The notes under the pieces were generated by a model. It did no database searches, was not told where the DNA came from, and saw only the letters and a list, made by a program, of their open reading frames with translations. A stretch of 64,000 nucleotides of DNA from Acidobacteriota bacterium (GTDB taxonomy: Bacteria > Acidobacteriota > UBA890 > WLXD01): positions 32,001 to 96,000 of the forward strand of contig CAXWPH010000007.1 of NCBI GenBank assembly GCA_963666055.2, in the 5' to 3' direction. A program made the translations under genes and the position numbers. Below are positions 1,924 through 13,365 of the stretch, piece after piece (position 1 is the first letter of the stretch; every line of letters begins with the position of its first letter).

Positions 1924-2320
1924 AACTCGATGATGCACCCGCGCGCGGGATCGGGAGCCGGAGCGCCAGCTCGAGGATCTGGTGCAAAGCTCCGGCAGCG
2001 GCGCTCGAGGGGCGGTCAGCGGATCGGCCACGGTGGTGGAGCCAGGCCTCGCGCGCCCGGACCTGCTCGAGCGTGAGGCGATCGCCAGCGTGCTTGCGCT
2101 CGTGGCAGTCCCGGCAGATCGGCTGGATGTTGTTGCGGTCCCAGAAGCGCTCCGGAGACAGGTGCACAGGCTCGATGTGGTCGATGTGCTCGGCGGCCGA
2201 CTGTGAAGCCCGCTTCGCCGCAGGGACGGCACAACGGCTCGTCTCGGAGGATTCCGGTGCGCCACCGTCGATAGCGGCGGCTCCAGCGCCAACGCCGGAT
2301 GACTTCGGAATCTATTGTCG
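1924..2320 (-). pseudogene. Phage gp74-like HNH endonuclease, frameshifted near 2197, C-terminus running into IS3
   Basis: RRWRTGILRDEPLCRPC in one frame, then AAEHIDHIEPV..RFWDRNNIQPICRDCHERKH in the next (CxxC..DH..N..CxxCH..H); start unclear. Confidence 0.8.
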
Positions 2321-2881: not shown

Positions 2882-4045
2882 TCACGCCTTGACCTTCCGG
2901 ATCGTCTTTCGTTTCGCCGCCCGTTTACGACTACGCCCGACCCGAACACCCGACCGCTTCGCGTTCCGTTTCACCCGGCGTTTCGACCGTGCACGCGATG
3001 AGGTCTTTTCGGTCACCAGCGGATCGTCGTTGCCGTCGGCGAGTTCCTCGAGCACTTGCCGGATCAGCGCGTCGAGCGCGCCCGTCGTCTTGGCGTCGAT
3101 GTCCAGCATCGACGGAATCGCCACCAGCTTCGTCCGCACCGCTGCCGCGTGTCCGCTCCACTCCGCTATCACTTCGTCCTTCGCGACGAGGTCCCCGGCC
3201 CGAACCTTGAGCGTCTGCTCGGCAAGATGCCTCTGCGCCCGCTCCTTGAGCGCCCGCTCACGCACCGCGTCGAAAAACTCGCCCGGCTGCATCGTCTCGT
3301 CTCGCGCCGCGAGCCACGCCTCTACGTCCTCGAGCCTGTAACCATGTGGTGCCCCACGAGCCCCACGCCGCGCCACTGGCATCCCTGCATCGACGAGCTT
3401 GTTGATTTGCTTGGCACTCCGCCCGATCGCCGCCGCGAGCTCCGCGCGCCGCATCAACTTCTCGACGCCGAGAATCTCGTCGGTATGTGCACGCCCCAGG
3501 AAAGAGCCACCCTCGAACGCCTCGCCCGGCCGTTGCAGCTCCCACAGCTCTTCCACCGCCACGAGGTACTGGCCGGGCAGATCACCACCGGCAAAGAGGG
3601 TGAAATTCTCGAGGCGTTTGTTGGCGTTCAGGTTCGCCGAAGTTGTATAGAGCACGTCGATCTTTCCGCTGAGCACGAGCACAAACTTCGCGTGACTGTT
3701 CCAAACCCGCAGCGCTTGATCGCCGAACAAGTGGCGGGCGCGGCCACAGTAGCGCGGCTGCCTTGACTCAAACGACCGGTCGACGAGCAGACGGAGCGTC
3801 TTGATCCGCCCGTCCTGCAGCAGCCCCTCCGCCCGCTCGATATCCGCGTTCGCCGCGGTCCAAGTCGACACCGTGACGTCGCTCGGGCCGCACCGGTCGA
3901 GCAGCTCTTCGATACCGTCGATCAGCGACCACGTACCGTCAGAGAGGCCATGGATCGAGCAACCGTCCGCGAGCCCTTCGAAGGCTTCCGACGGGCCTTT
4001 GCTGTTGCGACCGACCCACGCCGTACGCGCTGGCCGGCTCACCAC
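2882..4045 (-). CDS. PLD-like (HxK) nuclease domain fused to a Nu1-like terminase small subunit
   Basis: N-half has SHAKFVLV..YTTSANLN..RLENF. C-half from M at 3454 has a wHTH RAELAAAIGRSAKQINKLVDAGMPV..GYRLEDVEAWL, a coiled coil ERALKERAQRHLAEQ..GDLVAKDEV..VRTKLVAIP and a basic tail. Confidence 0.7.
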   Translation of the reverse strand: MVSRPARTAWVGRNSKGPSEAFEGLADGCSIHGLSDGTWSLIDGIEELLDRCGPSDVTVSTWTAANADIERAEGLLQDGRIKTLRLLVDRSFESRQPRYCGRARHLFGDQALRVWNSHAKFVLVLSGKIDVLYTTSANLNANKRLENFTLFAGGDLPGQYLVAVEELWELQRPGEAFEGGSFLGRAHTDEILGVEKLMRRAELAAAIGRSAKQINKLVDAGMPVARRGARGAPHGYRLEDVEAWLAARDETMQPGEFFDAVRERALKERAQRHLAEQTLKVRAGDLVAKDEVIAEWSGHAAAVRTKLVAIPSMLDIDAKTTGALDALIRQVLEELADGNDDPLVTEKTSSRARSKRRVKRNAKRSGVRVGRSRKRAAKRKTIRKVKA

Positions 4046-4569
4046 TTCGCGAACTCCTTACGTAGCTCGCCCAACAACTCCCGCGTGACGTGGCCGCGCC
4101 GAGCCTGGACGCAACGGAGCGAGCCCCCATCGAGACCCCGGGAACGAATTCTCTCGTCCCGTTCAGCCGAAAGCGTCTGTCCCCAAATGTGTCGAGAGAC
4201 AATGTTCAGGTCGCACAACGACACCCCAAGACGGCGCGCCGCTTTCGCCTCTGTTTCGCCAGAAGCATCGACCTTACGACGCACAGACATTTCACCATCG
4301 GTCATCGCATAAAGGAAATCTCTAGCTCCATCGGTCATAGGTACGAGAGTAACCGGGAACGGCCCATCCTCGAATTGAATCAGGTACAGGAACTCCCGGA
4401 GGGATACTTGACGCGCGCCGCGCTCAATGGCGTGGACGGTCGACCGCGCCCAAGACAGGCCCGCTCTTTGCGTCATGTTGGCGACGTCATACTGGCGAAG
4501 GTTGGACGCCCTTCGCCACTCTTTCATGCGCTCCGCGACAACGCCGACGTCCGCTTGACCTTTAGACAA
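4039..4569 (-). CDS. XRE-family helix-turn-helix regulator
   Basis: VAERMKEWRRASNLRQYDVANM..GLSWARSTVHAIERGARQVSLREF; stop overlaps the next start (GTGA). Confidence 0.8.
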   Translation of the reverse strand: MSKGQADVGVVAERMKEWRRASNLRQYDVANMTQRAGLSWARSTVHAIERGARQVSLREFLYLIQFEDGPFPVTLVPMTDGARDFLYAMTDGEMSVRRKVDASGETEAKAARRLGVSLCDLNIVSRHIWGQTLSAERDERIRSRGLDGGSLRCVQARRGHVTRELLGELRKEFAKW

Positions 4570-4705
4570 CCCTTAACCCCCTAGGGGCGCACAAAAAACT
4601 TACGTTATTCTGCGCCGATAACACCCGTTAACGGAAAGCCCCGGAAGAACCTACAGCCCCCCCTCACCGGGCGCCGCTTCACCCTAGCGATCCTCTAGTT
4701 CTTCG

Positions 4706-5164
4706 TCATCCGCAGCTCTCATCGCACGCCATTGCTCGCACTTCGTCTGCGTGAGCGGCGCTCACGATCCACTCCGCGGCGGTCAGCGTCTCGAGGTCCC
4801 GGCCCCACCATTGCCGGAGATTCTCGAGTGCCTTGTCCTCTGGCCAGCGCTCACCGTCGAAGTCCGCCACCAGGGCCACAGCACCGAAGAACTCCTGCCG
4901 TGAGCGGTCCAGCCCGTACAACTCCGCAAACTCGTAATCCACCGGAAGAGGGCGCTGTCGCACGGTTGTCGCAGTGATGGGCGCGGCCGTCGTACCCTCC
5001 TGTCGCACGGTTGTCGCAGGATTCGTCGCAGGCTCGGGGACAGCGGAATTCCGCTGCAACACCCGTAGTGCCGCCTCTTTCGCCCTCACGCCGCTGTTTC
5101 CCTTGTCGCAGGGTTGTCGCATCGCTTGTCGCACCGACACGCACCGTCTGTCGCACAGTCGCAC
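4706..5164 (-). CDS. Hypothetical protein; 5' half overlaps the iteron array, so the true start is uncertain
   Basis: ORF in the element's orientation; only the C-terminal ~75 aa look protein-like. Confidence 0.3.
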   Translation of the reverse strand: MRLCDRRCVSVRQAMRQPCDKGNSGVRAKEAALRVLQRNSAVPEPATNPATTVRQEGTTAAPITATTVRQRPLPVDYEFAELYGLDRSRQEFFGAVALVADFDGERWPEDKALENLRQWWGRDLETLTAAEWIVSAAHADEVRAMACDESCG

Positions 5165-5215: not shown

Positions 5216-6598
5216 CTATTCCTCATCGAAGCTTCCCTCGGCGATCGCTGCGTTCCGGTGCCGGTACACGGTCGATCGATGGATACCCAGCTCAGATGCC
5301 ACAGCGTCCGGAGGCATACCAGCTTCCAGGAGGTCGACGACTCGGTGTCGGGTCCGGCCCTCGACGATCCAGGTCGCGCAGCCGTTCTCGTCAGTCGCGA
5401 GTTGCGCTTCGAATGGGGCCACGTCAGCACCAATGAGTCCCCGAGCTTTCTCGAAGCGAACCTCGAACCGGGCGCCATTCTCAGCCCGGTACTCGCCCGG
5501 GCGCTGCAGCTTTATCACCGTGTCGAGGACATCCTCCCGGCGAGAGGTACCGCGCTGAGCACCGCTCTTGCCGGCGTGGTGCACGAGGAGGACAGCGACT
5601 CCTCGCCTCCTCAACCCCAGTAGAAGGTCCTGAGCGGGTCCCCATGCTTCGGCCTCGTTCTCCGGACCGGCTCCGAACAGCGTGGAAATATTGTCGAAGA
5701 CCACGAGCTTGGCGTCCCCAAGGATCGCGTCGAGGAGGCGCTTCCCCTCCGGGCTATCGAGCGCAGGCACCGGGACCTCCTGGGCGTCCGCGGCGAGGAT
5801 TCGAAAGGGGATTTCTGAGGTGTCGAGGTCCGGGTCTAGCCCGGCGAGTAGCGAGCTCGTTCGCGACTGGAGGGTCTCCACGGGCATCTCACCATCCACG
5901 AAAAGAACGGGCGCCCTGGCAGGCGCCTCCCAGCCCAAGGCCGACGTCCCCGTAGCGACACCGAGCGCGATACTGAGCGCGACCCACGTCTTGCCGTCCC
6001 CGCGATTCGCGTACAGCATCGCCAGGTCTTTCTCGTTGAACCAAGGCGACAGGAGGGGTTGGCGTGGGGGCAGACGAAGTTCGAGATATTCTGCGAGTTC
6101 ATATACTCGGACCCGTTCCGCGGCACGGCCCGCACCGTTTGCGATCGCCGCGATGGCCTGCTGGGCTCCCACGAGGACTACCTCGGGATCCGCGCCCGGG
6201 TCCATCGCCATGTTGCGGATAGTCTCTGCCTCGGCGATGGCGTCGCGCAGGATCGCTTTGTCCTTGATGGTCCTGGCGTACTGCTCGACGTTGGCCGCCA
6301 CTGGGATACCGTCGATGAGGCCGGAGATGTACGCCGCGCCGCCGACGCGCTCGAGCGCGTCGCGGCGGGTCAGCTCCTCGCGCAGGGTCACTGTATCGAT
6401 GGCCTCGGAGCGCTCCGTCAGCCCCGTCATCGCCTCGAAGGTCAGCCGATTGGCATCGTTGAAGAAGTCATCCGGCGATAGGATCTGCGCCGCGGCGATC
6501 AACGCCTGGTTGTCCAGCAGCACGGCGCCGAGGATCGCGCGCTCGGTCTGGGTGGCCGCGGGCAGGGCTCGCTCCGCCATCGCGGGCGCTGCGCTCAC
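5216..6598 (-). CDS. Replication protein: DnaB N-terminal domain + AAA_25/RepA-like SF4 helicase + C-terminal HTH
   Basis: ERAILGAVLLDN..LSPDDFF..IDTVTL..VGGAAYISGL..ANVEQYARTIKDKAILR (DnaB-N); Walker A ANRGDGKT, Walker B VVFDN, LVHHAGK, RGTSRRED; HTH VASELGIHRSTVYRH; GTG 6598 coupled to the xis stop (alternative ATG 6580). Confidence 0.85.
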   Translation of the reverse strand: MSAAPAMAERALPAATQTERAILGAVLLDNQALIAAAQILSPDDFFNDANRLTFEAMTGLTERSEAIDTVTLREELTRRDALERVGGAAYISGLIDGIPVAANVEQYARTIKDKAILRDAIAEAETIRNMAMDPGADPEVVLVGAQQAIAAIANGAGRAAERVRVYELAEYLELRLPPRQPLLSPWFNEKDLAMLYANRGDGKTWVALSIALGVATGTSALGWEAPARAPVLFVDGEMPVETLQSRTSSLLAGLDPDLDTSEIPFRILAADAQEVPVPALDSPEGKRLLDAILGDAKLVVFDNISTLFGAGPENEAEAWGPAQDLLLGLRRRGVAVLLVHHAGKSGAQRGTSRREDVLDTVIKLQRPGEYRAENGARFEVRFEKARGLIGADVAPFEAQLATDENGCATWIVEGRTRHRVVDLLEAGMPPDAVASELGIHRSTVYRHRNAAIAEGSFDEE

Positions 6599-6795
6599 GC
6601 CGCGGCCTCGCGTCGAGCCAACCATTCCTCCAGCGCGACGCGACGCACCAACCGGCGACGGCCGATTCTCAATGTTGCTGGCCCCTGCCCCTCCCGGATT
6701 AGCTGCCAAAGAGTCGCCCGGCCGATACCGATCAGGCGCGCGGTCTCCTCAACGCTGTACGCTGCGCGATCGCCCGCTTTAGTCGTCCCTGCCAT
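6595..6795 (-). CDS. Excisionase/AlpA-like HTH protein (66 aa)
   Basis: AYSVEETARLIGIGRATLWQLIREG..TLRIGRRRLVRRVALEEWL; GGGGGAG upstream of the ATG. Confidence 0.85.
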   Translation of the reverse strand: MAGTTKAGDRAAYSVEETARLIGIGRATLWQLIREGQGPATLRIGRRRLVRRVALEEWLARREAAA

Positions 6796-6928: not shown

Positions 6929-7768
6929 TTACTGAGGGCGAGAGCGGTACGCCCGTTGCCGGCAGGTTCGGGGCCGGTCGCAGTATTTGCGGAGCCTACC
7001 GGTGGCAGACGACGTTGGTAGGAATCGACCGCACGCGGGGCACCGCCCCTGAACGCGGCGGCGCCCGCCAAGGTTCCGCGCACAGATCTGCCGCTCTACC
7101 GACCGGAACTCACGGTCGAGGCGATCATCTCCACGCGGATAGTCTAAATCCATCGCGGCCACAGCCACCAACTGCCACCGTCGGTCCGCAGGAGAACCAG
7201 GCTCCGCGCTGAGGTCTCCGAGCAGGTCGGTGGGCGCGAGCCCCCGCATCGCGTCTCGGATACGCCGTTGCCGGTCCGGGCTGAGTTGCAGAACGCTCCG
7301 CCGTTTCACCGCGTCGCGCGCCTCCACGAAACGCTCCGCCTCCTGTCGAAGATCCGTCATTCGACGCTCGACCTGGTCTGGGGATATCTCCAGACGCTCG
7401 GCAGTGACAGCGACGGTGAAGCCCCGCAGACGACAATCTATGATCTCCCAATCGCGCGGGTCCCGGAGCCGGTCCAGGTAGGCCTCCCGCGCCTCCCACA
7501 GCGCCCGTAGCGGTTCTGCTGGAGGAGGCTCAGGCAACGAGGCTCCTGCCGACGCTCCTTCAAGGTAGTATTGAGCGGGCCCCGCATGCACCTCCGCCAG
7601 TCCGTCGCGCTGCAGACGGCGCTCCAACTCGGCACACTCGCTACAGCGTTCGGCGAGAGAGTGCCTCTCAACGCTCGTCGCTGCTGGAAACGCCGCAAGT
7701 GCGGCTTCGCGACCCAGCGCGGTTCGCTGGCAACCGCGGATCTCGCAACGCGAGCCGTTTGCCGTCAC
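6929..7768 (-). CDS. Putative regulator: Cys motifs flanking a sigma-region-4-like HTH
   Basis: GTG overlaps the integrase stop; CEIRGC..CSEC; DPRDWEIIDCRLRGFTVAVTAERLEISPDQVERRM; CPACG..GRLRKYC..CRQRAYR. Confidence 0.6.
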   Translation of the reverse strand: MTANGSRCEIRGCQRTALGREAALAAFPAATSVERHSLAERCSECAELERRLQRDGLAEVHAGPAQYYLEGASAGASLPEPPPAEPLRALWEAREAYLDRLRDPRDWEIIDCRLRGFTVAVTAERLEISPDQVERRMTDLRQEAERFVEARDAVKRRSVLQLSPDRQRRIRDAMRGLAPTDLLGDLSAEPGSPADRRWQLVAVAAMDLDYPRGDDRLDREFRSVERQICARNLGGRRRVQGRCPACGRFLPTSSATGRLRKYCDRPRTCRQRAYRSRPQ

Positions 7769-9042
7769 GGTTGCCGGTTCTCCTTGAGACGCCGCACCTT
7801 GGCCCGGCGTCCCACGTCGAGCTTCGGCGCGAATTTGCGTGCCCGTTCCGCCCGCCACGTGTCGGCGAGGTGTCCGTAGTGCTTCTCCACCATCCGCGTG
7901 GTCGTGTGGCCGAGCTGGGCGGCTAGGTCCGGCAAACCACCGCCGGCCATCAGATAGAGGCTCGCGTAGGTGTGTCGAAGCTCGTGGAAGACAATCCTTG
8001 GTTTGATCGTCGCGTTCTTACACGCTTCCCGCATGCGCCGTTGCTGAGTATTCGGATACCACTCCGAGCCGTCGGAGTGAGTGAAGATGCGACCCTCCGC
8101 GACGCGACCTGCCGTCAACTCGTCGAACGCCGCAACTCCCTCTTCGTTGAGGTAAATACGACGCGGGTTGCCGCTCTTGGCCTTCGCAATGAAGACAGTG
8201 CCTGTCTCCGGGTCGAAGTCCCGAGCCTCAAGTGACGTAAGCTCCGCAAATCGAGCGCCGGTATGTAATGCGCCCCTGACCAAGACCCGTAGATCGCGCT
8301 CACACGCATTCAGCAGTCGACGGATCTCCTCATGATCCAGGTATCGCGTTCGACTCGCCTCGACTTGTCGAAACGGCTCGACGCGGCGCCAGACGTCATC
8401 GCTCGCGACGAGACCATCCTTGTATGCCCGGGTGAGAGCGGCCTTGAGTACGGCCAGTACGCGGTTCGCCGTGGACTTTCGCGCCCGGCGGTCGTTCTTG
8501 GTGACGGCCTTGCGCTGATTCTTGGGCTCGCCGGGTCGGGACCGTAGATGCGCTGGCTTCTCCGCGAGCGCCTGGTGCCAGCGTCGAAGGCGGTCAGTGG
8601 TCAGGTCGGCGAGCGGCATATGACCGAGTTCGGGGAGTACGTGCGCCTCCAGGCTACAACTGACGCGATACCAGCTCCGCCGATGCTCTTTGTACCAATC
8701 CATGTAACGGGTAACGGCGCCGGCCACCGTGACAGGGCCTCCCTTGAGTACACCCAGGTCGTCATCGGGGGTCCACGCAACCGCGAGCTCGTGGGCTCGC
8801 GCATAATTCAGCACGTCCACGCCGTCAGCTACCGCGTGGGGCAGGTCGTCGGCGGCCCCCAGCGCTTTCCATCTATACGGAGACGCTCCCCGGGCCTTTC
8901 CCACATAGGCGCGGACGTACCACGTGCCGGGGCCATCCTCGGTCCGGCGGTAACCAAGCGCGCGACCACGAGCTACCCGCACCCAGTGTGGGCCATGCTG
9001 GCTCGGCAATCGTCGCCGAACCGTTCGCGTGGTGAGATCCAC
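7765..9042 (-). CDS. Tyrosine integrase
   Basis: Catalytic set TGAR, KAKSG, FHELRHTYAS, LGH, HYGH; start at GTG 9042 after GGAGGGG (track ORF begins 9117). Confidence 0.95.
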   Translation of the reverse strand: MDLTTRTVRRRLPSQHGPHWVRVARGRALGYRRTEDGPGTWYVRAYVGKARGASPYRWKALGAADDLPHAVADGVDVLNYARAHELAVAWTPDDDLGVLKGGPVTVAGAVTRYMDWYKEHRRSWYRVSCSLEAHVLPELGHMPLADLTTDRLRRWHQALAEKPAHLRSRPGEPKNQRKAVTKNDRRARKSTANRVLAVLKAALTRAYKDGLVASDDVWRRVEPFRQVEASRTRYLDHEEIRRLLNACERDLRVLVRGALHTGARFAELTSLEARDFDPETGTVFIAKAKSGNPRRIYLNEEGVAAFDELTAGRVAEGRIFTHSDGSEWYPNTQQRRMREACKNATIKPRIVFHELRHTYASLYLMAGGGLPDLAAQLGHTTTRMVEKHYGHLADTWRAERARKFAPKLDVGRRAKVRRLKENRQP

Positions 9043-9059
9043 GCCCCCTCCATTTGAGT

Positions 9060-9180
9060 CCTTCCGTAACTCCTCCGTAACTATGGCCGGTAGACTCGCC
9101 TGGACTCGAATGGCCACCGACAGCTTAATTCATTGTATCAAAAGGGATTCCAGAGTCCAATAGAGTCCAGTGAAGTCCAG
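9060..9180. repeat. Short direct repeats next to att (putative integrase arm-type/Xis sites)
   Basis: TCCGTAACT twice (9063-9082); AGTCCA three times at 10-bp spacing (9154-9179); inverted TGGACT at 9101. Confidence 0.55.
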
Positions 9181-9189
9181 CTTGCCCCA

Positions 9190-9400
<211 letters not shown>

Positions 9401-9689
9401 ATCACTGGCTCGGCCCGCGAAACGATGAACGCCGGCTCGATCTGAGGATCTTGGAGTCTCCGCAGTTCCCGCTCGACCTCACTCCTACGACGGACGCCAA
9501 TGCCGCGGCGCACGAGAGCCTCAGACAGGCTCTTGAAGGTCAGTCCAGGCTCCTGATCGAGGGGGTCGAGAGGGCACGATCAAGAAGCTACGGCTGATCA
9601 GATTGCCGAGAACATGGTTCGCCTCATCGAAGCATCGAGGGAGCGAATCGGCAAAGCGCTACTTGCTCTATAGATGGTAGATGGTCAAT

Positions 9690-10705: not shown

Positions 10706-11118
10706 GGCCGGACCTCCCCAGGTTGATAGCGGCACATGCTGAGGCTCCAGCGGACGCACGCACAACTCCATGAGAGCGACACGCGATTGCCGGTTTGAGT
10801 GCCGCGAGCGTCAGTATACGACCCACGAGCACAACCTATCCGTGTCTACGGAGCACTAGAGAGAAAGCCGTAAAGAACTGTCAAGCGGCGCGGGCGATAA
10901 CGGCCAAAGCGACAGCGACCACGTGACGCTGGTCACGGGTTCGACGAGCTGAAGCGGCTCGTGCCGACGGACCCGTTGGTAGCGGCAGACTGAAAAGGGA
11001 CCCTGCGGCGGGTTGAAAAGGGACCCCCTGGTGACCGATGGACTGGGCCCCGCTGGTGGGGTACCGAGACGGAAGCAGAAGCCGTATCGGATACGCCGAT
11101 CCAGGAGGACCCGAGGAG

Positions 11119-12580
11119 GTGATCAGAGTGTCTCAGTGGGCCGAGATCCGCCACATGCACGTCGTAGATGGAATCGCCAAGAAGGAGATAGCGCGACGGC
11201 TGGAGGTAAACATCAAGACGGTGCGTCGGGCGCTGGACAAAGACGAGCCGCCGCTTGAGCGTGCCACGCCCCGGCGAGGTCGGCGGCTAGATGCGTGGCG
11301 GGAGCAGATCGAGGGCTGGTTGAAGGCCGATCCACGGATCAGTGCGAAGCGGATCGGGCGTTTGCTGATGCCGATGGCGGGAGCGGTTCCGGGACGGACG
11401 GTGAGGGAGTACGTGGCGGAGTCGCGTGGCGAGCTGTATCCGAAGGAAGCGTACGTGCATCGGAGCCAGGCGCCGGGGCAGACGATGGAGGTGGACTTCG
11501 GTGAGACGTGGGCGCTGATGGAGCGACGGCCCCGGAAGCTGAAGTTCTTCGTGGCGACACTGCCGTATAGCAACGTGTACTTCGCCAAGGCGTACGCGCT
11601 CGAGAGGCTGGAGTGCCTGCTGGACGGGATACAGAAGGCGTTCGAGTACTTCGGCGGGGTGACGGGGCGGGTGGTGTTGGACAACACGTCGCTGGCGGTG
11701 AAGCGGGTGCTCCGGGGTCGAGATCGGGAACAGACGGATGCCTTCAACGGCTTCCGTGGGTCGTATCCGTTCGCGGCGGAGTTCTGCGCGCCGGGCAAGG
11801 GTGGAGGGCGGCGTGAAGTACGTGCGCAACAACGTGTTCCGCCCGATGCCAAGTATCGACAGCTTCGAGCAGCTCAACGAGCTGATGGTGCAGGAGCTCG
11901 AGGCGGATCTGGACAACCGCCGGTTAGCGGATGGCCGCACGGTCAGAGAAGCGTGGCAAGCGGAGCGCCAGCATCTGCGTGCGCTACCGCCGCATCCGCC
12001 GGCAAGCTGCCGGACACTGGCCCGGGTGGTGGACAAGTTCGGGCACGTACGGGTGGACGGGGCGCACTACTCGGTGCCGATCCGACACGCCTACCGGCCA
12101 GCGTGGGTGAAGCTGTACCACGACCGCGTGGAGGTGGCGGTGGCCGATGAAGTGGTGGCCAAGCACGCCCGCTCGTTCCGACAGGGAGCCAAGGTGCTGG
12201 AGCCGCTACACGTGCTGCCGTTGCTTCAGCGCAAGCACCGGGCGGTGGGTGAGGCGACGGCGCTGCGGGGCTGGGAGCTGCCCGAGGCGTTCCGTGAGCT
12301 CAGAAGGAAACTGCATCAGTGCACCCGCAAGCCGGACCGGGAATGGGTGAAGGTGCTGCGGCTGTTGGAGGAGCACGAGCAGCCCGAGGTGGAAGCCGCG
12401 GTCCAGGATGCGTTACGTAGCGGATCGCCCCGCTACGAGACCGTGCGCTTGTTGCTACGTCGAGCCGAGCAGGCGGGTATGCCCGAGGTACGCCCCGTGC
12501 CGGTACGCGCTGAGTTGGCGGCGATGGAGGTAGCGGAGCCGGTGCTCGAAGCGTACGACGTGCTCTGGAGGACAAGCTGA
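11119..12580 (+). pseudogene. istA: IstA transposase, frameshifted by a short deletion near 11800
   Basis: HTH, EVDFG, VLDN, then FCAPGK shifts frame to VEGGVKYVRNN; the usual xEKGx segment is missing. Confidence 0.85.
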
Positions 12581-13365
12581 TGGCGGTGGCCAAGATCCAA
12601 GAACCGCCGCATCTGGTGGAGGATCTGCGGACCCTGTACCTGACGAGCATGGTCTCGCAGTGGCGAACGGTGACCGAGCAGGCGCGCCGCCAGCGGCAGC
12701 CTTATGCGGAGTACCTGGCCGATCTGGCGAGGCTCGAGGTGACCGGCCGGCGGGAGCGACGCATCCAGCGCCGCATCAAGGAGGCACGCTTCCCGATGCT
12801 CAAGACGCTGGATGCCTTCCGGTTCGAGGCGCAGCCAACGCTGGACCGTGACGAGGTGCTGGAGTTGTTCCGCTGCGAGTGGGTCGGAGAGGCGGCCAAC
12901 GTGGTGTTCGTCGGCTCCGTCGGTACCGGCAAGACGCACCTGGCGATCGCCCTCGGGATGGCCTGCTGCCAGCAGGACTACCGGGTGAAGTTCACCACCG
13001 CTGCCGAGCTCACCAACTTGCTCGTGGAGGCCAAGCAGGACGGGCGGCTCTCCAGAAAGCTCGAGCAGATGGCGCGTTACGACGTGGTCATCCTCGATGA
13101 GCTCGGCTACGTGCCGTTCGACAAGCAAGGAGCCGATCTGCTGTTCGGCTTCATCACCCGGGTGTACGAGCGCCGCTCGGTGGTGGTCACTACGAACCTG
13201 CCGTTCGCCAAGTGGTCCGAAGTGTTCTTGGATGCCACGGCGGCCGCTGCAGTGATCGACCGGATCGTGCACCACGCTACCGTGCTCAAGACCGAAGGCA
13301 ACAGCTACCGACTCAAGGCCGCCAAGGACAAGCGCCGCGGCCAACGCCGAAAGGGAGGACGATAA
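12580..13365 (+). CDS. istB: IstB AAA+ ATPase helper
   Basis: GSVGTGKTHLA, ILDELGY, RYERRS..TTNLPF..W, DRIVHH, GNSYRL. Confidence 0.97.
   Translation: MAVAKIQEPPHLVEDLRTLYLTSMVSQWRTVTEQARRQRQPYAEYLADLARLEVTGRRERRIQRRIKEARFPMLKTLDAFRFEAQPTLDRDEVLELFRCEWVGEAANVVFVGSVGTGKTHLAIALGMACCQQDYRVKFTTAAELTNLLVEAKQDGRLSRKLEQMARYDVVILDELGYVPFDKQGADLLFGFITRVYERRSVVVTTNLPFAKWSEVFLDATAAAAVIDRIVHHATVLKTEGNSYRLKAAKDKRRGQRRKGGR

Follow-up and report, generated by a model that had tools for sequence, protein, structure and literature searches.

Small terminases (TerS) are regarded as DNA-recognition and scaffold subunits; the large terminase (TerL) cuts, and an HNH protein helps in HK97-like phages. In HK97 this terminase cofactor, gp74, is described as a small nuclease that promotes cos cleavage and is encoded at the cos-terS boundary (PMC9410871). 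TerS directs TerL to cos, and the Rpp islands of E. coli have a cos-then-gene layout in which Rpp, a protein of 139-154 aa with its own oligomerisation domain, is proposed to need the helper's TerS for TerL binding (PMC9026076). The single-HxK PLD nucleases share an active site across a dimer, prefer single strands in some cases, and carry the signature HxK(x)4D(x)6GSxN, as described in PMC5714352.

Our analysis concerns a protein that joins a PLD-fold domain to a TerS. In the window, which is the whole 64,000-nucleotide stretch of an Acidobacteriota genome (G000) that was analysed, a single open frame on the minus strand (4045-2882; ORF call and PHROG profiles) encodes 387 aa, in agreement with an earlier note on this DNA that had described one ORF with both parts. 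Profile searches against PHROG assigned residues 19-152 to phrog_16945, labelled 'endonuclease' (E 8.5e-32), and residues 195-347 to the small terminase phrog_57 (E 5.8e-20), and scans of the 387-aa protein with Pfam and NCBIfam returned no real match. The gene starts at GTG 4045 (or 4042), overlapping the stop of the upstream HTH gene.

The N-terminal domain (residues 9-175; 3521..4021, minus) was recognised by its family (phrog_16945, the 'NucT-like nuclease' of phage annotations), its fold and its motif. Residues of catalytic type are present (H118, K120, S136, N138, and E146), and the HAK triplet lies at residues 118-120 (nt 3694-3686), where the earlier note had placed it. The PLD fold proposed there was confirmed by an AlphaFold model of the N-half (pLDDT 89.8): Foldseek ranks 1-12 are all proteins of the PLD alpha/beta fold, with SauUSI, NgoAVII, Nuc, Zucchini, and NucT among the matches (E 2e-5 to 5e-4, TM about 0.45-0.62). 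The domain thus has in common with Salmonella Nuc (1byr), H. pylori NucT (6ehi), Zucchini, and the PLD domains of NgoAVII and SauUSI both the fold and the His, Lys, Ser, Asn, and Glu, and a homodimeric active site of the Nuc/NucT type (PMC5714352) is expected. Unlike these enzymes, with which it shares 10-21% identity, it has Leu125 in place of the canonical Asp of HxKxxxxD and Thr instead of Gly before SxN, with a longer spacing, and so departs from the full signature. The H-K-S-N-E set is invariant in 25/25 aligned relatives and the motif is present in 157 of the 166 PLD proteins examined; there was no Pfam PLD match for the domain. The domain is predicted to cut DNA.

The C-terminal part (residues 198-347; 3005..3454, minus) consists of a winged HTH, a long helix, and C-terminal helices, as do lambda gpNu1 and other Nu1-type TerS (phrog_57/141; PDB 1j9i, 6hn7_B, 7lw0), and the fusion gene too sits just after a cos-like site. 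The C-half covers positions 10-181 of the 199 of the phrog_57 profile, matches gpNu1 chains of the PDB weakly (E 0.04-0.13), is 35% identical to gpNu1 over the first 52 residues, and aligns at 36% identity over 160 residues with the stand-alone TerS of a lambda-like prophage in genome G011. The wHTH, the helical oligomerisation region, and an alignable C-terminal region of a Nu1-type TerS are therefore all there, and the earlier note was right to call this half Nu1-like. Its comparison with Rpp did not hold. The prophage alignment includes the C-terminal helices, none of the four PDB matches of the C-half at E<=1 is an Rpp chain, and the protein has 387 aa with a full-length TerS plus a predicted catalytic domain; we rejected an Rpp identity on these grounds. 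The word 'nuclease' is absent from the main text of the Rpp paper (PMC9026076). What sets the fusion apart from Nu1-type TerS is its N-terminal 190-residue PLD domain, a basic tail of low model confidence (2885..3007, minus; 21 K/R in the last 41 residues), and its place in an island with no intact terL directly downstream, either here or in the copy on contig C13. P0036 and the TerS of the G011 prophage, both unfused relatives, have similar basic tails.

The fusion is genuine, and both of its halves are under purifying selection in all five open copies compared. The window's genome holds a second open copy on C13 (98% protein identity) and a frameshifted third on C15; species G002 has three open-frame copies and one remnant, and G003 one remnant. 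The five open-frame copies thus lie in different islands of two species. Among the eight loci of the genus, three have a full TerS, two lose it after about residue 312 (both among the three G002 copies), and three are broken. Across the five open copies the PLD has a dN/dS of 0.03-0.08 and the TerS (residues 198-312) one of 0.05-0.27, with dS mostly 0.5-1.3 (0.08 for the TerS between the two G000 copies), and the linker of the fused copies is, like the PLD, under strong purifying selection. Contigs from public runs X1, X2, X3, and X4 span the junction without gaps, the best-matching run being possibly the window's own source, and a contig of run X6 spans it too, with a compensated deletion-insertion pair about 120 nt away. 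In G002 the junction reads TTG-CTC, CTA-CTC, and CTG-CTA in place of TTG-ATG; the ATG is a Leu codon in all three copies, so that neither a coupling motif nor an internal start is kept.

The context is satellite-like, as the earlier note had supposed, with an integrase, AlpA/Xis, primase-helicase, TerS, and a tRNA att repeat. On the same strand lie a small ORF of no assigned family (4706..5164), with a homologue beside a similar helicase in an island on contig C5 of the same genome, a replication protein with DnaB N-terminal, AAA_25, and HTH domains (5216..6580; Pfam/PHROG), an AlpA/excisionase-like HTH protein (6595..6795; phrog_66, HTH_17, weak AlpA at E 0.005), and a tyrosine integrase (7765..9117; phrog_1). 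An att-like 42-bp copy of the 3' end of tRNA-Glu (9190..9231, plus) has its partner outside the window at C7:18844-18885. The two repeats bound 22.3 kb that also hold a tRNA-Thr, IS copies, and a second integrase, which leaves the left end of the island uncertain; no joined att form was seen among the public-run contigs examined. By the PICI core definition that SatelliteFinder uses (PMC10085698), judged here from Pfam/PHROG matches and not from its own profiles, four of the five functions are present (integrase, AlpA/MerR/Stl regulator, primase-replicase, and small terminase). The capsid-morphogenesis gene, which is missing in type B PICI variants (PMC10085698), was found neither among nine window ORFs nor among ten ORFs left of the window, and these 19 ORFs held no tail, holin, or portal gene. 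The element is likely PICI-like, a phage satellite, and has in common with the E. coli Rpp and SaPI TerS islands an integrase, an AlpA-like regulator, a primase-replicase, and a TerS-like gene after a cos-like site (PMC10085698, PMC9026076, PMC6739421). With six queries and phrog_15 we found no intact TerL, portal, or capsid gene in G000 (portal and capsid being sought with G011 queries), and hence identified no resident helper. A lambda-like prophage of the G011 type is a candidate helper type; its head module (L030; G011:C2 27001-40680) holds TerS, TerL, portal, a protease-capsid fusion, and the upstream element described below.

The other copies lie in small islands that differ in their integrases and replication genes; the C13 copy is at tRNA-Sec, while tRNA-Thr and tRNA-Lys are the sites of two G002 loci. 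The G002 locus L028 forms a clean unit of 7.9 kb bounded by 46-bp repeats. Several observations concern the surroundings of these islands. After the C13 island (L002 14370-19188) come KAP-NTPase-like, QueC-like (PHROG), and TatD-like genes with an HTH antitoxin-like gene, a set that we take to resemble the Qat defence system. An integrase island on contig C2 (L005 9157-16264) carries tandem TerS genes, P27-type then Nu1-type, without a PLD. In the window, sequence inspection points to an IS3-like element cutting the left side of the island (653-1921), an IS21-like element (11038-13365), and a recombinase-like C-terminal remnant ending in the tRNA repeat (9193-9513, minus), with a second island to the right. 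The tRNA Lys-Glu-Thr cluster occurs twice in G000 (C7:18709-19229 and C10:20561-21081) at 99.6% identity with different flanks, by either strain mixture or duplication.

A conserved element of ~115 bp (4668-4553, minus), putatively cos-like or late-start in function, has at its end the start that the fusion gene originally used. It contains AGGTTCT at 4652 and ACGGG..CGCA at 4629-4611, and precedes all five open copies and a sixth place with IS-like sequence after the first codons. Searched with its profile, the DNA immediately ahead of terS scores 32.6 bits (E 7e-8) in the lambda-like prophage of G011 and 16.9 bits (E 0.005) in the G012 element, against at most 10.8 bits in 1.35 Mb of shuffled control; the match in the C2 island was weak (10 bits) and not significant. 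The profile did not match lambda cos. AGGTTCT compares with GGGTCCT in lambda cosQ, and the ACG-GG..CGC stretch stands at a spacing of 31-33 nt against 35 in lambda. Position and shared sequence make this element the likely packaging site, although a late promoter or ribosome site could account for part of its conservation. In the window copy a 528-bp insert (4028-4555) after codon 6 separates the element from the gene. The insert brought an XRE-type HTH gene (4039..4569, minus) and captured the TTG at 4569 with which the fusion gene first began, which makes the start at 4045 secondary; the uninserted form occurs in the C13 copy and in one X4 contig. The HTH gene uses the fusion gene's start and restarts the fusion gene through a GTGA overlap, and a 40%-identical HTH lies near the integrase, on the opposite strand, in the C13 island.

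The earlier note had instead proposed 2330-2880, on the other side of the gene, as a substrate for nuclease assays. With the conserved cis-site lying upstream, this interval was rejected as the packaging site: only parts of it match elsewhere (about 225 nt beside the gene with C13, shorter pieces in other places), and repeat and promoter scans gave nothing above chance except three weak 19-nt repeats. The latter are direct repeats within 2553-2773, spaced by exactly 101 nt, and may be due to chance. Next to this interval is a frameshifted HNH endonuclease gene of the terminase-associated type (1990..2320, minus; phrog_144 for the 3' piece), whose break near 2200 is also found in contigs of two public runs. 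Related HNH copies or fragments of the terminase type, at least eight in number, are spread over G000 (window 1990-2320, C6, C7, and C15), some near short TerL fragments, which suggests many satellite or prophage remnants in this genome.

The PLD family itself is tied to TerS well outside this genus. The whole protein retrieved 1554 representatives at E<=0.001, the best 150 of them mostly through the PLD half, for which ESM Atlas clusters are 85-100% viral. Exact-peptide scans of viral contigs, GTDB contigs, and plasmids revealed no close relatives, and in the host's phylum phrog_16945 occurs in two of 401 genomes, both of the window's genus. The matches include 58 records of cultured phages, where the gene is called 'NucT-like nuclease' or 'endonuclease' (30-37% identity among the 50 matches listed). 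The 'NucT-like nuclease' of SEA-PHAGES annotations in Arthrobacter and Gordonia phages (phrog_16945) belongs to the same family, but stands alone; the label is an annotation, and the literature that we found held no functional study. In Gordonia phage Francois the gene is number 1, three small genes ahead of terS. The counterpart in Arthrobacter phage Andrew is gp58, whose neighbour gp59, annotated 'hypothetical', is P27-type TerS-like by local profile (E 1e-23); gp59 (L114 5582-5941) is short, directly follows the NucT-like gene, and lies ~4 kb from terL across the genome ends.

We surveyed the neighbourhoods of the best 80 of 367 viral and the best 80 of 163 metagenome loci, which form 97 clusters at 80% identity, 82 of them with at least 350 nt downstream. 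A terminase match lies within 3.2 kb downstream in 66 of these 82, and within 600 nt in 62, numbers to be read with the facts that the terminase profiles were seeded from the same loci (the seeds being PHROG-checked) and that viral collections favour terminase-bearing contigs. Metagenome-only clusters have a downstream terminase in 21 of 32 cases, and of 18 loci with both flanks, 14 have the terminase downstream and two upstream. In an independent check, PHROG placed a TerL no more than 3 kb away in 36 of 53 viral clusters (three lacked flank) and in 9/19 when contigs were at least 20 kb long. A P27-type TerS directly follows the PLD stop in 39/82 clusters, and Pfam PF05119 matches all 39, 31 of them above the cut-off. 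The TerL partners span four PHROG families (phrog_9, 15, 2, and 38), so no single cutting chemistry goes with the PLD. Immediately upstream of the PLD, HNH genes were recognised by PHROG in L072, L094, L173, and L058, and by motif only in L038 and L044; with such co-occurrence in several loci, we rejected the PLD as a plain gp74 substitute. A loose cosQ-like pattern was found upstream of 3/72 distant PLD genes, against 0/72 inside the gene, counts too few to use.

The two domains also met in one chain elsewhere. Among 52 mostly longer proteins scanned, six carry phrog_16945 and phrog_57, all distant from ours, and another has two PLD domains joined to TerL; five of seven further long proteins bring the distant fusions to 11. 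By inspection, two domain orders occur: the PLD ahead of the whole TerS (P0105), or between a wHTH-like N-terminus and the TerS helices (P0060, P0072, P0183, and P0185). A 46-row tree rejects a single origin of its ten fused rows (p-AU 1e-78), and its starred branches force at least three changes, that is, at least three fusion origins; row P0054 was labelled by eye and neighbour rows were picked after a first tree. In P0020, P0023, and P0069 the PLD is fused to an HTH and a helical region matching phrog_645 (labelled 'Rnase E'), which may be another TerS type. The presence of the PLD beside or inside TerS in many unrelated phage sequences makes it a likely, unstudied helper of viral DNA packaging. 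Unlike PLDs of the Nuc/NucT type, which are linked to secretion or restriction, this family is linked to terminase genes. Judging by titles and the openings of abstracts, our literature searches returned no report of this link, and the supplements of satellite catalogues could list such genes.

The reading we prefer, plausible though somewhat short of probable, is that the protein is the satellite's own TerS carrying an accessory nuclease for the packaging site. Its Nu1-type part would bind the predicted cos-like site of the island, and the fusion would recruit the large terminase of a lambda-like helper phage. TerS oligomers may bring two HxK half-sites together, and the PLD might then nick or trim DNA that is nicked, single-stranded, or branched in or close to cos, which would open or clean the DNA of the satellite for packaging. 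The island would most likely have taken a PLD-plus-TerS pairing already used by phages and fixed it as one chain. By analogy, the fusion may work like a TerS-based redirector of the SaPI type with an added predicted catalytic domain, and gp74 of HK97 is the closest functional model for the PLD, bearing in mind that their folds are unrelated, that the PLD co-occurs with HNH genes, and that it is repeatedly fused to TerS. Support for this reading comes from the selection that keeps the fusion in all five open-frame copies, the conserved H-K-S-N-E set, the terminase census with its 39 adjacent P27-type TerS genes, and the distant fusions. It also comes from the match between the upstream element and the DNA before the G011 terS, in the same layout as the described Rpp islands (PMC9026076), and from the precedent of an accessory nuclease at cos, HK97 gp74 (PMC9410871). 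Several observations argue against it. The PLD is dispensable in kin, since a related TerS stands without it in the G011 prophage, in the G012 element, and in the C2 island. HNH genes stand beside the PLD, its partners include four TerL families, and in at least six clusters the PLD and a short P27-like gene have no large ORF within 3 kb. Only three of the eight genus loci keep a full TerS. Finally, lambda cos is not matched by the element profile, and G000 lacks matches to an intact helper TerL, portal, or capsid.

A bolder reading, possible but rather less so, is that PHROG 16945 is an unrecognised third component of the packaging module, working only with a TerS partner, be it adjacent, fused, inserted, or a mini P27-type TerS of its own. 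Satellites would then have made from it a one-chain, TerS-guided nuclease that opens their own site and maybe cuts the helper's.

Cutting the site of others could also be the whole function. TerS would guide the PLD, or co-assemble with it, onto the packaging sites of helper or rival, and cleavage would lower the yield of the competitor. We consider this unlikely. Satellites do use nucleases against helpers, as in the nicking nuclease described for PLE, and the family offers suggestive arrangements: the PLD paired with an additional short P27-like TerS that precedes a second TerS (L185, L127, and L135), or the pair away from TerL (L057, L081, L082, L102, L111, L153, and gp58-59 of Andrew). Yet ordinary phages carry the same PLD beside their own terminase, a PADLOC search found no defence-system match for the PLD half, and nothing points to helper cos as target. 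The island's cos-like site resembles that of the prophage, so a cos-destroying enzyme would have to tell them apart, and self/non-self discrimination would rest on TerS specificity alone. The destruction of helper cos DNA suggested in the earlier note is not favoured for the same reasons.

Less likely again is a homing-like selfish nuclease of the cos-terS interval, which would cut alleles lacking it and be copied by recombination, the fusions being by-products of repeated insertion at terS. Its patchy presence and its insertion before, after, and inside terS are what such an element would leave, and HEG-like endonucleases are reported to have a hot spot upstream of the terminase (PMC10448857), in a paper whose main text mentions neither PLD nor phospholipase. 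But the PLD and linker of the fused copies are under strong purifying selection, in-frame insertion inside TerS must preserve both folds, and the PLD model shows no DNA-recognition domain of its own.

It is more doubtful still that these loci are decaying prophage or satellite remnants, in which the fusion was selected in the past but is today carried along as a passenger without any role specific to the island. Decay is visible in the broken HNH gene of the window, in the many truncated copies and IS insertions, and in one G002 copy (L026) where frameshifted TerL fragments follow the fusion gene, an arrangement that fits descent from a prophage. However, cos-like site and fusion are kept together in islands whose integrases, replication genes, and tRNA sites are unrelated; one of these islands (L028) is a complete att-bounded unit, and dN has stayed low at the dS values given above.

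PLD enzymes of the Tdp1 type remove protein or phosphate adducts from DNA ends, and the domain might be such an end-cleaning phosphodiesterase, not an endonuclease, acting before packaging. Its occurrence with any TerL family and the presence of Tdp1 (1q32) among the fold matches agree with this very improbable alternative; the top fold matches are instead single-HxK nucleases, and we saw no conserved adduct-leaving partner upstream. The weakest explanation, a sequencing or assembly indel joining two neighbouring genes, was raised as a caveat in the earlier note because of a TTGATG that does lie at the start of TerS (3457-3452, its ATG in frame as residue 198) and at whose ATG database entry P0033 starts, but it is refuted by the gap-free X1-X4 contigs, the X6 changes falling outside the junction, the five open-frame copies, and the unconserved TTGATG.

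Overall, we regard the fusion as a real and selected form of satellite TerS, new as a variant, that points to a so far unstudied family of TerS-linked PLD proteins. If the preferred reading is true, PLD-TerS fusions would be a new hijacking tool of satellites, and a catalytic PLD on TerS, gained several times, would represent a second, unrelated class of packaging nuclease. The unfused gene is present in cultured Gordonia and Arthrobacter phages for which laboratory hosts exist, which makes the idea directly testable.
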